A stretch of 64,000 nucleotides of DNA from an uncultured virus (IMG/VR IMGVR_UViG_3300033069_000955). Lineage: Duplodnaviria; Heunggongvirae; Uroviricota; Caudoviricetes. Both the position numbers and the translations under genes were made by a program. Below, one piece after another: positions 1,970 to 19,075 of the stretch. The stretch lies in IMG/VR virus record IMGVR_UViG_3300033069_000955, one strand, 5' to 3'. The notes beneath the pieces are model-generated. The model was given only the letters and a program-made list of their open reading frames with translations. It was not told the origin of the DNA and searched no databases. How positions within the stretch are numbered: the stretch's first letter is position 1; each line of letters begins with the position of its first letter.

Positions 1970-2044
1970 TGGTCAGGAGAGATGAATTCGAATCACCGAC
2001 CCGCTCGATTGAAATGAGCTGCTCTACCGCTGAGCTATCTCCTG
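1970..2044 (-). tRNA. tRNA with anticodon TCA (opal suppressor type, short variable arm)
   Basis: CAGGAGA TA GCTC AGCGGTA GAGC A GCTCA TT-TCA-AT CGAGC GGGTC GGTGA TTCGAAT TCATC TCTCCTG A CCA. Confidence 0.85.
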
Positions 2045-2052
2045 AAAATTAG

Positions 2053-2451
2053 TTAAGAGACAAGCTCACTGGATATATCCACAACGTAGTATGGAACGTT
2101 ACCAGGAAGCATATGCCATTGTTCTCGTGGAAATGGTTGAGTTACAAGGTTAGAAGCTAAACCAAGTAGGAACAATTGTTCCATATCTTGGTGTTCTCCC
2201 CATTGGACATCATCCTTAGTATTACAGGCATTAAGGAATGACATTCCTTTTCCTTTATCATGCATGAATTCGTCAGGTAGTTGAGAGAAAAGTTGAGCAA
2301 TCTCATTACGATGAGACTTCAATCTTTCAGGATGGAATCCTACATTAGTCATGATACCTTGAGCTAAGGTGTAACCATCGGTTGGTTCATTTTCCTTGAA
2401 CAAACAATCAAGAAAGATATTTTCAACATTCTGAGCTGTAAGTTGTAGCAT
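2053..2451 (-). CDS. conserved phage hypothetical protein (IFxDCLF...GFHPxRL...QWGxH motifs)
   Basis: Start trimmed to MLQLTAQ because the track's longer N-terminus runs through two tRNA-like genes; motif pattern recalled from other phage proteins. Confidence 0.75.
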   Translation of the reverse strand: MLQLTAQNVENIFLDCLFKENEPTDGYTLAQGIMTNVGFHPERLKSHRNEIAQLFSQLPDEFMHDKGKGMSFLNACNTKDDVQWGEHQDMEQLFLLGLASNLVTQPFPREQWHMLPGNVPYYVVDISSELVS

Positions 2452-2486
2452 GACGTTTTGATTCCTTAAAAGGAAAGCAAGGAGAT

Positions 2487-2567
2487 TGGTGCAAGGAATA
2501 GGATTCGAACCTATGACTTCCTTCTCGTTTGACGGAGATGGTCCTCTGACCGCTGAGGTACCCTCAC
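2487..2567 (-). tRNA. atypical tRNA: G3-U70/A73 acceptor, extended anticodon stem, 8-nt loop
   Basis: GTGAGGG TA CCTC AGCGGTCA GAGG A CCATCTC-CGTCAAAC-GAGAAGG AAGTC ATAGG TTCGAAT CCTAT TCCTTGC A CCA. Confidence 0.75.
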
Positions 2568-2571
2568 ACAT

Positions 2572-2660
2572 TGGTGGACTACAAGTAAAACAATGTAAAC
2601 ACTGTTTGCTAATTGACATAATTGCTCATATCAATTGGTACAGGAATGCCTTGTAATCCA
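2572..2660 (-). ncRNA. candidate CCA-terminated cloverleaf-like RNA without T-loop consensus
   Basis: GGATTACAAG/CTTGTAGTCC stem followed by A-CCA, two internal hairpins, 4 nt upstream of the atypical tRNA. Confidence 0.35.
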
Positions 2661-3663
2661 GCTATATTCCTTGTTGCATTTGAGTTACTATTAGGTTTGA
2701 CCCTATTTCGCTCTTTCATTTACTCCGTCCTATTTTGTTAAGAATTGCTTCCCAACTTTTATTAACAGAACCCGAGATTGTACCATTACTCGGGCTGAAA
2801 AACTTTAGGTGAAAGGAGTAGGGGTTTCTCCTACTCACTCATTATTCGGGCTTTGAAGGCCTTAGCCATAGGTTATTCTTATACAGAATCCCTTCATGTG
2901 TTTAGGGGTGACAACCATTGCTGATCGTCACCCTGGGGTTTTTCTTTCACCGATCATACCAGATAGATCGTGATTGAGATTTGCTTATATTCGACAAAGT
3001 TTATACATGGCGAGAAGGAGAATGGATGAAACTCCGATTTTCATGTTGGACTTAACTGTCGAATTAGCGAACCAGTATTTTGCTGGTTCTTATTTGGTGT
3101 TCTCTTTTGAGGTGAGTGATCCCCTCTTATCCACTATGATGCAGAAATTCTGGAAGATCTGCATGTTTGTGTTGTTTGGTTTGAACCAGGTTTAACCCTG
3201 TTGTTGTTCAACCCATTTTTGGTTTTTAACCACTAACAAGTAGCATCAAGGAAACTAATGTCAGTCGGTCAAATTGGGAATTACCCCATAGATGCTTTTA
3301 ACACCTATGAGGTAGACTACAAAAAATCTCAGTATATCATACCGCTCTTAACGGTTTTTTCTCATTTACGGGTGGTCTTAGGTGAGCTTCATGATAGTTA
3401 ATCATCCTCCGTCAGTCGGGCCATAATACCAGATATTTCCAGTAATTGGTAGAACCCGAAATTGATTTAAGTTATCCAAAGTTGGCTTTCAGCAGCGAGT
3501 CTCACTTAGCTGCCTTAGCCAACTCAGGAACATTCCCGGTGGTGGCCGGGAAATAACCCCAGTTAATTGGGGTTGGACGTGAGTGGGGCGGGGGAAAATA
3601 GGGGTCCCAAGTTTCAAAGGGACCCCGTTGTTTTACACACATGGCCATGAGCCATGGTGCTTA

Positions 3664-16683: not shown

Positions 16684-17330
16684 TGATTAATCAAGATGGT
16701 ATGATTACGCCAGGCCTTATTATCAGTGATGATGGTATTCCTTATGATGTAACACTTGGACGTTCATTTGATACGTTTGGGGAAGGGGATACACAGCTTC
16801 CTGAACTATTACTACCTGCTGACTCTATTACTTTTAGTACTACAGGACAACTAACACCAGCTAAAACATTTGGTGGTACACTCACTTTTGCTGATGCTGC
16901 CGTACAAAGCCCGATTACTGTAACTTTTGAATTCTGGAAACAAGGTAAGCTTTGTAATACTAAAAATGTTTCAGTTGATATGGGTGAAGTTTATTCTTCT
17001 TCAATTACTGGTTTGCCTGTGGGCACTTATTCTGTTCTAATTAAAGCTGGTAGGCCAAGATTGAATCGAGTAGTTAGAAATGTGGTTTTTACTAAAACTG
17101 GAACTGCTACACCTGTGACTACAACTATCTATACTGGTGATTGTAATGGTGATGGTGTAGTTGATGCTGCTGACGTAGATTATGCAATCAGTGTACTTGG
17201 TGCTACTCCTAGTGATCCTACTTGGAGTACTGCTGGAAGGTATGCAGATTTGGATAACTCAGAGGAAGTGGATGCTGTAGATCAGGATCTTGTGACTGCA
17301 AATATTGGTAGAACACACGACACTGTTTAA
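16683..17330 (+). CDS. beta-sandwich plus dockerin-like (paired Ca-binding loop) protein
   Basis: GDCNGDGVVDAAD and ADLDNSEEVDAVD repeats preceded by GTYSVLIKA. Confidence 0.8.
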   Translation: MINQDGMITPGLIISDDGIPYDVTLGRSFDTFGEGDTQLPELLLPADSITFSTTGQLTPAKTFGGTLTFADAAVQSPITVTFEFWKQGKLCNTKNVSVDMGEVYSSSITGLPVGTYSVLIKAGRPRLNRVVRNVVFTKTGTATPVTTTIYTGDCNGDGVVDAADVDYAISVLGATPSDPTWSTAGRYADLDNSEEVDAVDQDLVTANIGRTHDTV

Positions 17331-17342
17331 GTAGATTTAAGT

Positions 17343-17844
17343 GATAGTTTGGCAGAGTGGACGATTGCACGAGGCTTTGACAACACTATCTAATATGCTA
17401 ACCCAACAAAACAGTAAAAAACAAGGGGATGTCGGTCTTGGTAGTGCGATTAGTTATTTTACTTCTAAGGGTTTGACTGTCTGTATTCCCTTAACAGATA
17501 GCCAAGATTATGACTTAGTAGTTGACTTGAATGGATTAAAAAAAATTCAAGTAAAAACTACAACATCAAAACCTAGATACGATATTTTTGTAGTTTGTTT
17601 AAAAGTCTGTGGTGGAAATAAATCTAGATCTACCATTAAGAAATTCGATCCATCATTTGTAGATTTTGTTTTTGTTCTAACAAATGAAGGGGAGACATAT
17701 TTATTACCTTCATCAATATGTGGTTCTACTGCAATATCTTTAGGAAAAGATAAAGAGAAATATAAACTCATTGTTGGTTCTTTAGATTTTTGGGAATCTT
17801 AGTCTGTAAAAAGCGCGTAGGTTCGAATCCTACAGCTATCACCA
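17343..17844 (+). tRNA. long-variable-arm tRNA interrupted in the anticodon loop (identity ambiguous)
   Basis: 5' half GATAGTT TG GCAG AGTGGACGA TTGC A CGAGG CT (17343-17376); 3' half AA TCTTA...GTAGG TTCGAAT CCTAC AGCTATC A CCA (17795-17844); acceptor halves pair. Confidence 0.8.
17395..17802 (+). CDS. PD-(D/E)XK homing-type endonuclease (I-Ssp6803I / PDDEXK_5-like)
   Basis: KQGDVG...IPLTDSQDYDLVV...KIQVKT motifs; start trimmed to MLTQQ. Confidence 0.85.
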   Translation: MLTQQNSKKQGDVGLGSAISYFTSKGLTVCIPLTDSQDYDLVVDLNGLKKIQVKTTTSKPRYDIFVVCLKVCGGNKSRSTIKKFDPSFVDFVFVLTNEGETYLLPSSICGSTAISLGKDKEKYKLIVGSLDFWES

Positions 17845-17852
17845 TGATTTAA

Positions 17853-17938
17853 GGAAGATCACCCTGGCTGGGCTGGGGGCTGTCTTGAAAACAGAACGAC
17901 CTACAAGGGTTGGGGTTCGATTCCTCGGTCTTCCTCCA
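17853..17938 (+). tRNA. tRNA-Ser(TGA), can fold as an 8/4 Sec-like cloverleaf
   Basis: GGAAGATC/GGTCTTCC acceptor, loop CT-TGA-AA, long variable arm, TTCGATT T loop, T-CCA. Confidence 0.85.
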
Positions 17939-17946
17939 TTTTAATG

Positions 17947-18023
17947 GGACCAATAGCCAAATGGTAAGGCAACCAGTTGCAACCTGGTGATTTTCGGGGG
18001 TTCGATTCCCTCTTGGTCCTCCA
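17947..18023 (+). tRNA. tRNA-Cys(GCA)
   Basis: GGACCAA/TTGGTCC acceptor, loop TT-GCA-AC, U73, CCA. Confidence 0.92.
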
Positions 18024-18037
18024 ACACTACTTCTGTA

Positions 18038-19075
18038 ATGAAAGTAGATTTAACTAAATCTTCTATATTGGTTTGCGGTGGTGCTGGTTTCATTGGTTCT
18101 ACTTTTGCTAAGTTAGTTAAACAAAAGTATCCAGAAGCCAGCATTGTTGTTTATGATGCCCTTACCTATGCTGGTAATCCTCATAACTTACCTCCAAATA
18201 TTCCTTTGGTAAAAGGATTAATTCAAGATAGAATTCTTTTATCTTCCTGGTTTGAAAAAGAAGTTCCTGATTATATTGTAAACTTTGCGGCTGAGACCCA
18301 TAATGATAGATCACTAACTAATCCTACATCTTTTATTGAGACAAATGTGGAAGGAGTTGGAGTTCTTTGTGATTTAGCCAATAAATTTTCTGTTAAGAAG
18401 CTAGTTCATGTATCTACTGATGAATCATATGGTAGTATTAAGAACGGTAGTTTTAAGGAAACTGATCCTATTCATCCTAATACTCCTTACTCAGCAGCTA
18501 AGGCTGGGGGTGAATTAATCGCACTAGCCCACCATAATACATTTGGGACCCCTGTTTGTATTACGAGAGGGGGAAACACCTATGGTCCTAACCAATACCC
18601 AGAAAAACTGATTCCTTTTTTCCTTACCAGGCTTCTAGAAAACAAAAAAATTCCTGTTTATGGTAATGGATCGGCTGTAAGAGAATGGATTCATGCTGAA
18701 GATCACGCAGAAGGTGTACTTTCAGTTTTGGAGAGAGGGAAAATTGGGGAAATTTACAATATTGGTGATGTAAATGAAAGGAACAATATGGAAATTGTAC
18801 AAATTCTTCTTGCTGAGACTGAAAAGGGGGAGGATTTGATTAAATACATTGAAGATCCGAGAAAAAATGCCCACGATATGAGGTATTCTCTCTGTACTGA
18901 TAAGATTGAAACAGAATTAGGCTGGAAAGCTAAGAAAAATTTTGATGATGGACTTAAAGAAACCATCAATTGGTACAAAGAAAACGAGAATTGGTGGAAA
19001 GAAGTTCAGGAAACTGATGATTATAGGAACTTTGTCACTCAGTTTTACTCTAAAAGTTTAGGAGAAGACCTTTGA
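18038..19075 (+). CDS. rmlB: dTDP-glucose 4,6-dehydratase
   Basis: GGAGFIG, DALTYAGN, NFAAETHND, STDE, YSAAK, YGPNQYPEKLIP; start trimmed to MKVDL. Confidence 0.95.
   Translation: MKVDLTKSSILVCGGAGFIGSTFAKLVKQKYPEASIVVYDALTYAGNPHNLPPNIPLVKGLIQDRILLSSWFEKEVPDYIVNFAAETHNDRSLTNPTSFIETNVEGVGVLCDLANKFSVKKLVHVSTDESYGSIKNGSFKETDPIHPNTPYSAAKAGGELIALAHHNTFGTPVCITRGGNTYGPNQYPEKLIPFFLTRLLENKKIPVYGNGSAVREWIHAEDHAEGVLSVLERGKIGEIYNIGDVNERNNMEIVQILLAETEKGEDLIKYIEDPRKNAHDMRYSLCTDKIETELGWKAKKNFDDGLKETINWYKENENWWKEVQETDDYRNFVTQFYSKSLGEDL

Follow-up and report, generated by a model that had tools for sequence, protein, structure and literature searches.

At positions 17343–17844 of the DNA analysed here, a stretch of 64,000 nucleotides (nt) from an uncultured Caudoviricetes virus (IMG/VR record IMGVR_UViG_3300033069_000955; hereafter the window), a transfer RNA (tRNA) gene is divided at its anticodon loop by a 416-nt insert that carries a gene for a putative homing endonuclease. 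The window corresponds to the reverse strand of bases 156496–220495 in the 234,927 base pair (bp) virus record, which is estimated to be 95% complete. The arrangement is probably the outcome of an endonuclease gene inserting, without an intron, into a redundant tRNA-Ser-like gene and inactivating it, rather than a new kind of intron.

All parts of the split gene lie on the + strand. The 5' part (17343–17377), delimited with the intron mode of ARAGORN, a 20-nt sequence of the D-arm and matches in phages, comprises the 5' acceptor strand, the D-arm, the 5' strand of the anticodon stem (17370–17374) and the loop letters C32, U33 and U34. The insert (17378–17793) was defined by the junction enumeration, the excision product and the negative Rfam scan described below, and measures 416 nt if a 7-nt anticodon loop is restored, close to the ~415 nt of the first-pass annotation. 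It consists of a 17-nt leader and an open reading frame (ORF), whose start had been placed about 18 nt into the insert and whose stop had been placed in the 3' half of the tRNA. This was confirmed, since the endonuclease gene (17395–17802) ends with a TAG stop codon at 17800–17802, within the 3' part of the tRNA, where the last 9 nt of the ORF also lie. The 3' part (17794–17844), recognized from ARAGORN, the junction enumeration, a match to the tRNA-Ser of Pseudomonas phage PA5oct and the fold of the variable region, contains the loop letters GAAT, the 3' strand of the anticodon stem (17798–17802) with four of five pairs, a degenerate variable region (17803–17816), the T-arm (17817–17833), the 3' acceptor strand (17834–17840), A73 and CCA. 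The acceptor strands (17343–17349 and 17834–17840) form seven of seven pairs, one of them G-T, and the D-arm, T-arm, A73 and CCA are canonical. The earlier description of intact, mutually pairing halves holds for these elements but not for the variable region, which has no hairpin, nor for the anticodon stem, which carries a G-A mismatch.

ARAGORN in its intron mode calls a tRNA at 17343–17844. When positions 17380–17816 were shuffled and the flanks kept, an intron-bearing tRNA was still called in 249 of 300 shuffles, and the call is therefore not evidence for an intron. The tRNA-Gln(ttg) modelled by the program, with three G-T pairs in the stem and a 24-nt variable region, was dropped after this control and the junction enumeration.

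Judged from its sequence, the host gene of the insert is a class II, tRNA-Ser-like gene. The D-arm 20-mer has exact matches at 63 metagenome loci, 55 of which are tRNA-Ser genes by ARAGORN with UGA (47), CGA (7) or GGA (1) anticodons; the others are two tRNAs of phage arrays with different anticodons and six uncalled sequences that are fragments or are cut by contig ends. None of the 63 loci continues with the anticodon-stem letters of the window. Among isolate phages the best matches of the 5' part are tRNA-Ser and tRNA-Tyr genes, and positions 17808–17840 are 91% identical to the tRNA-Ser of PA5oct and its relatives. The junctions were examined by enumerating all 670 joins of a 5' end (17369–17399) to a 3' start (17740–17812) in which the middle has the size of a cloverleaf. 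In the register consistent with the PA5oct alignment, the anticodon stem draws its 3' strand from 17798–17802 and the loop is restored from CTT (17375–17377) and GAAT (17794–17797), with the insert lying between U34 and G35. Excision of the insert in this register yields a UGA anticodon, and moving the junction leftward by one nucleotide yields GGA; either one specifies serine. The product excised in silico is called as an 86-nt tRNA-Ser(tga) by ARAGORN, and 86 nt is also the length of the phage's intact tRNA-Ser and tRNA-Leu. The first-pass annotation had considered TTG, TGG and GGG as spliced anticodons and found them unsuited to a tRNA with a long variable arm, an objection that lapses with the 7-nt loop, which also allows TGA and GGA.

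Decay of the tRNA is found beside the insert. A functional bacterial-type tRNA-Ser is expected to possess a stable helix in its long variable arm, the main mark of serine tRNAs, and none forms at 17803–17816. This variable region folds at 0.0 kcal/mol, compared with a mean of −7.9 kcal/mol for 57 tRNAs that share the D-arm, only one of which lies above −1. The sole mismatch in the anticodon stem places G28 opposite A17801, the central base of the TAG that terminates the endonuclease ORF, which suggests that the coding frame has been kept at the expense of the tRNA. The damage is limited to about 20 nt adjoining the insert and the split tRNA is intact further out, consistent with a fairly recent insertion. 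This structure indicates that the tRNA gene most likely lost its function through the insertion. An intact tRNA-Ser(UGA) gene called by ARAGORN (17853–17938, + strand), unrelated in sequence to the split tRNA, begins after a spacer of 8 nt.

The 135-codon ORF matches PF11645 over residues 6–116 with 56.5 bits (cut-off 26.1; E = 4e-15) and phrog_5018, an uncharacterised phage family, with E = 1e-20. Its best solved relative is I-Ssp6803I (PDB 2OST, E = 2e-4), whereas NCBIfam holds no model for it. Every residue that is invariant across ten aligned homologues is kept in the ORF. These include D35, D38, D40, D44 and K54, which are aligned with 2OST and which we take to be among the acidic residues and the lysine of the PD-(D/E)XK site. 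The ORF thus appears to be an intact member of PF11645 and a putative homing endonuclease. The first-pass annotation was correct in recognizing an enzyme of the I-Ssp6803I type and in assigning the element to the mobile homing type.

The insert offers 17 nt of non-coding sequence before the ORF and none after it, short of the ~200 nt or more that a ribozyme needs. An Rfam scan of 17200–18100 with permissive filters and E values up to 10 gave no match to group I (RF00028) or group II models, and in particular no group I core overlapping the ORF, a finding that the first-pass annotation had named as refuting its proposal. As a positive control, RF00028 matched over the full model (96 bits, E = 4e-25) on the 202-nt insert of the phage's own tRNA-Arg(UCU), an ORF-less group I intron (genome 29534–29809; locus L002:535–810). 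The earlier remark that the insert leaves no room for a ribozyme is borne out by these results. The ORF is, moreover, collinear with free-standing homologues over residues 2–125 at 36–62% identity.

The complementary stretches near the insert ends (among them ATCTAA at 17388 and TTAGAT at 17782) are present as had been reported. The closing helix proposed from them does not exceed shuffled controls: segments of 51 and 57 nt pair at −19.8 kcal/mol against a shuffle mean of −13.0 (standard deviation 3.4), a value reached by 4% of 2000 shuffles, and the insert ends alone pair at −13.2 against −11.1, reached by 22% of 300 shuffles. The whole 502-nt region folds with z = −1.76, and 5 of 100 shuffles fold as well. 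A 6-nt complement of the acceptor strand at 17385–17390, seen in the minimum free energy fold, was judged to be chance. No bulge-helix-bulge motif, that is, no 4-bp central helix flanked by 3-nt bulges, could be drawn by hand between 17370–17400 and 17780–17802. Flank pairing around the endonuclease gene was not convincing in any of five distinct homologous loci (six rows), and a value of 4% at locus L011 stems from an overlapping tRNA. A promoter and terminator scan returned nothing exceeding shuffles.

A Pfam scan covered the 239 phage ORFs of at least 95 amino acids (aa); two giant ORFs and the ORFs below 95 aa lay outside it. Neither RtcB nor a tRNA-splicing endonuclease (PF01974/PF02778) was detected among these 239 ORFs. 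The first-pass annotation had pointed to RtcB or an RNA ligase as possible partners of a spliced tRNA; the former was not found, while the latter is present as an RNA ligase (PF09414, phrog_548, weakly Rnl2-like) accompanied by a SAK ('Swiss-army-knife') HAD phosphatase at genome 4740–6953 (locus L022). This pair lies directly upstream of a tRNA-Gln(UUG) gene. According to PMC7824862, an RNA ligase with a HAD phosphatase is common tRNA-repair equipment of jumbo phages, and its presence is therefore no evidence for splicing.

A protein-guided scan of viral contigs identified relatives of the enzyme at 19 loci, with 39–62% identity. The enzyme gene stands between tRNA genes at all 19, every tRNA called by ARAGORN is on its strand, and at 14 of them a tRNA-Tyr or tRNA-Ser(GCU) is directly beside it. 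None of the 86 Rfam matches at the 19 loci (E up to 0.01) is to group I; all are tRNA-type except one int-alpA and one YrlA. Nor was an orphan T-arm with an acceptor partner across the enzyme gene found at any of these loci. Among isolate phages, 46 records match the enzyme by tblastn. Two of these were inspected, Acinetobacter phage vB_AbaM_CP14 and Vibrio phage Chester, and in both the gene, annotated as hypothetical, abuts a tRNA-Tyr in a co-oriented tRNA array. The isolate-phage matches listed are all hypothetical or of unknown function, bar one weak match over a gene labelled 'Holliday junction resolvase'. Together, these sequences indicate that a free-standing life in tRNA arrays is the rule for the subfamily and that the window is the exception. 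The premise of the first-pass annotation that group I introns are the normal home of such enzymes fails for this subfamily, given that the 19 viral loci and those of CP14 and Chester are free-standing.

A tRNA-Tyr lies directly 3' of the enzyme gene in CP14, Chester and the viral loci L006 and L007. An 8-mer that the window has in common with the D-loop of the CP14 tRNA-Tyr was judged to be chance. The order of a PF11645 gene followed by tRNA-Tyr(GUA) recurs in unrelated phages (L006:1492–1959; L103:874–1345; L104:877–1334). In L006 the stop codon of the enzyme falls inside the acceptor stem of the tRNA-Tyr, and 5' processing of that tRNA would therefore cut the stop codon off the messenger RNA. 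Seven arrays with enzyme relatives (L012–L014, L016–L018 and L021, at ~2270–3180 of each) also contain tRNA-model matches of 111–125 nt. Alignment of 13 sequences showed inserts of 30–53 nt in the anticodon region, with a short hairpin that displays compensatory changes, an invariant ACAGCAA and a T-rich tail. They are too short for group I introns and Rfam reports tRNA alone, and the anticodons assigned to them by ARAGORN (aaa, aat, att and agg) look implausible.

Other tRNA genes of the phage bear comparable marks. A scan for T-arm motifs outside called tRNAs, followed by reading of the sequence, revealed a second split tRNA in locus L022, with its 5' half at genome 651–697 and its 3' half at ~1527–1575. 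Its halves form seven of seven acceptor pairs and five of five anticodon-stem pairs, and the 3' side of its anticodon loop is the site of an insert of ~830 nt that contains a complete tRNA-Ile(UAU) and, on the other strand, an HNH_2 endonuclease gene. The intron-bearing tRNA-Arg(UCU) gene is followed by an HNH gene on the opposite strand and then by an orphan 29-nt repeat of the T-arm and 3' end of the tRNA, with one change (L002, ~1362–1392). Endonuclease strikes on tRNA genes thus appear to be recurrent in this phage, because both the second split tRNA and the orphan tRNA-Arg piece occur in its genome. Its selfish nuclease load comprises two HNH_2, one HNH, one endonuclease VII-like and three GIY-YIG genes, together with three inteins. 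In the metagenomes, loci L056, L063, L070 and L074 contain orphan 5' tRNA-Ser fragments that run through the 5' strand of the anticodon stem, each with a complete tRNA-Ser(UGA) ~50 nt further downstream; element integration presumably left these scars behind.

The stretch is present in nine sequencing runs, none of them recorded as RNA, and contigs of four, from two studies, were compared (runs X1, X3, X4 and X5). In X1 the full 2 kb is covered and differs at two positions. A 2591-nt contig of X3 covers 16745–18600 with 21 differences in 1856 nt and no gap, and both insert junctions are covered in X4 and X5. No contig joined across the insert was found in the four runs. The uninterrupted allele proposed in the first-pass annotation was sought without success in viral contigs, in the 63 metagenome loci and in the contigs of the four runs; exact-pattern scans of viral contigs with the 5' half and with the 3' end of the split tRNA likewise gave nothing. 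Protein searches with the upstream 215-aa dockerin protein and with a 1260-aa neighbour returned no relatives of the phage and hence no orthologous uninterrupted or diverged allele. The variant represented by X3 and X5 has 16 differences in 16797–17335 and five in 17965–18535, and none in the intervening 629 nt (17336–17964), a tract that takes in the intact tRNA-Ser(UGA) as well as the split tRNA with its enzyme gene and reaches into a tRNA-Cys. Such a tract fits recent copying of the block by homing with co-conversion.

These observations can be combined in the following scheme. The anticodon of a serine-type tRNA would have received, at the U34/G35 boundary or one nucleotide before it, a copy of an endonuclease gene from the lineage found in phage tRNA arrays, with no intron RNA attached. 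The insertion would have broken the tRNA gene, a loss that could be tolerated because the intact tRNA-Ser(UGA) 8 nt downstream covers its function. Transcription of the endonuclease gene presumably accompanies that of the tRNA array, and the block would presumably spread as a selfish unit when uninterrupted alleles in co-infecting relatives are cut and the gene is copied in with its flanks during repair.

A number of features weigh against this scheme. The insert sits exactly at the position of group I tRNA introns, and T17377, the last exon letter before it, and G17793, its own last letter, would be compatible with a group I site. Precise removal of the insert would leave a serine-type body with a serine anticodon, as expected of a spliced element, and genes for an Rnl2-type RNA ligase and a SAK-HAD phosphatase are present in the phage. 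No flaw is seen in the 5' part, and the T-arm, CCA and both strands of the acceptor stem have survived; a gene that died long ago would not retain such distal parts, although a recent insertion explains them equally well. The insert is retained in all four runs from two studies with no uninterrupted allele found, and the tract devoid of differences could stem from purifying selection or from the conservation of tRNAs. The anticodon position, the restored serine anticodon and the good distal parts together leave protein-mediated splicing a slim chance. In its general form, the PD-(D/E)XK protein or an RNase of host or phage origin would cut at both ends of the insert, and the phage Rnl2-type ligase would seal the exons once their ends had been healed, producing a second tRNA-Ser(UGA). 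We consider this highly unlikely, even though excision at 17377/17794 leaves a 7-nt loop and an 86-nt body, the genes for a ligase and a phosphatase are at hand, the insert is conserved across the four runs and the second split tRNA of the phage also has its insert on the 3' side of the anticodon loop. Against it stand the lack of a tRNA-splicing endonuclease or RtcB in the scanned ORFs, the ordinary nature of the ligase and phosphatase as a jumbo-phage repair set (PMC7824862), the missing bulge-helix-bulge, a terminal helix no better than shuffles, the loss of the variable-arm helix that a serine tRNA needs and the location of the enzyme's relatives outside tRNAs. The narrower version, a ribozyme-free phage tRNA intron that a protein nuclease excises at U34/G35 before the phage ligase and phosphatase rejoin the ends, is somewhat less likely still. 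The nuclease might then be the encoded PD-(D/E)XK protein itself; this fold class also includes the archaeal tRNA-splicing endonuclease. If true, protein-mediated splicing would constitute enzymatic tRNA splicing in a bacterial system, the first for bacteria and phages. The first-pass annotation had proposed either a ribozyme-less mobile intron removed by a nuclease plus a ligase or a tRNA body used non-translationally; the former is disfavoured by the absence of EndA and RtcB from the scanned ORFs, the decayed 3' part, the free-standing relatives and the spare tRNA-Ser(UGA) next to the split gene.

Least likely of all is a cryptic self-splicing ribozyme, a divergent group I core or a new class, overlapping the coding sequence. 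With a T ahead of it and a terminal G, at 34/35, the insert resembles the group I intron of tRNA-Leu(UAA), which we take to occupy the same position; this pattern arises by chance about once in 16 cases and the junction can slide. The region as a whole folds slightly better than shuffles and the phage hosts a true group I intron in a tRNA, but no Intron_gpI match appears even at E = 10, the sequence of the insert is accounted for by coding, collinear with free-standing homologues, and no guide complementary to the 5' exon end was seen by eye in the first 40 nt. The alternative that carries more weight than either form of splicing, and is nonetheless unlikely, is a recombinant wreck in which 5' and 3' parts of different tRNA genes were joined in repair, for example a resident 5' half and the remnant of a tRNA that normally follows the endonuclease gene. 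The tRNA-Tyr directly after the enzyme gene in L006, L007, CP14 and Chester, with the overlapping stop codon in L006, would supply such a remnant. A tRNA-Tyr loop motif, CTGTAAA, occurs at 17804–17810, a weak full-length tRNA-model match covers 17776–17841 (22.1 bits, E = 0.066), and the orphan 5' tRNA-Ser fragments of the four metagenome loci are also compatible with it. The acceptor strands of the split tRNA, however, pair at seven of seven positions, whereas 17776–17782 pairs at five of seven, and both parts find their best matches among serine-type genes. The CTGTAAA stretch aligns with the variable arm of the PA5oct tRNA-Ser, which makes the Tyr-like motif probably a chance resemblance; on the same alignment, the motif together with a hairpin at 17784–17799 was ranked low as a cassette-borne tRNA-Tyr remnant. 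Insertion of an intron-less endonuclease gene into a redundant tRNA gene hence remains the reading we prefer.

The split gene and the intact tRNA-Ser(UGA) are followed by a tRNA-Cys(GCA) gene (17947–18023, + strand; ARAGORN, Rfam 58.3 bits), the next member of this small tRNA array. A simple ORF call on the phage genome gave 321 ORFs of at least 60 aa and 94% coding density with the standard code. Pfam matches include Baseplate_J, a sheath initiator, a capsid protein, a family A DNA polymerase and RecA, as well as GroEL/GroES, a sigma-70-type factor and peptidoglycan hydrolases. From this gene content the phage appears to be a myovirus-type jumbo phage (235 kb); a bacterial host is indicated because sigma-70, peptidoglycan hydrolases and GroEL/ES are among its genes. 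Two tRNAs have UCA and CUA anticodons, of the opal and amber suppressor types (window 1970–2044, − strand; genome 21181–21260), and coexist with the 94% coding density under the standard code. A further tRNA at window 2490–2567 (− strand), with three G-T pairs in its acceptor stem, is recognized by Rfam (40.2 bits) and missed by ARAGORN. At window ~1116–1271 (− strand) an orphan T-arm has a seven-of-seven acceptor partner ~120 nt upstream, with a loop-like CTCTAAA motif between them, and may represent a long or insert-bearing amber-suppressor-like tRNA.

Endonucleases of the I-Ssp6803I type would, on this evidence, have a second lifestyle besides that in group I introns, as free-standing genes in tRNA arrays that are often welded to tRNA-Tyr, and members of phrog_5018 would be able to land in a tRNA anticodon with no splicing RNA at all. 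The split tRNA genes that result are missed by tRNA finders or mis-called as intron-bearing, and annotators should leave such 'intron tRNAs' out of the tally of functional genes. The case adds to selfish elements that are probably tolerated thanks to a spare, here a tRNA gene beside the broken one. The literature searched yielded no account of an endonuclease insert lacking a ribozyme in the anticodon of a phage tRNA, which is not proof of absence.

I-Ssp6803I is a PD-(D/E)XK homing endonuclease encoded inside a self-splicing group I intron of the Synechocystis tRNA-fMet gene. The enzyme in the window belongs to the same family (PF11645), and its putative target is likewise the anticodon loop of a tRNA gene, but no ribozyme accompanies it and its relatives are free-standing genes in phage tRNA arrays. 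In this last respect it resembles SegB of phage T4, which PMC2330249 describes as a homing endonuclease encoded among the T4 tRNA genes and able to cut genes of this type; it acts on the tRNA genes of relatives, and neighbouring tRNA genes are dragged along (PMC2330249, PMC8421152). The two differ in that SegB is a GIY-YIG enzyme that lies between tRNA genes and recognises the T-arm, whereas the present gene encodes another fold and lies inside a tRNA at the anticodon. Archaeal ORF-bearing tRNA introns are removed by EndA at a bulge-helix-bulge. They likewise occupy the anticodon loop and have ends that can pair, but in the window a bulge-helix-bulge cannot be traced, the scanned phage ORFs yielded no EndA homologue and a bacterial host is indicated. 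A further parallel is offered by genes in pieces and other cases of intron-less homing, in which an endonuclease gene is put directly into a host gene without a splicing RNA. In mobE within nrdA of phage Aeh1, and in fractured genes with split inteins, the split proteins reportedly reassemble and function is kept. The product of the split tRNA gene is an RNA, for which we know of no bacterial route to reassembly; here the loss would instead be covered by the spare gene.

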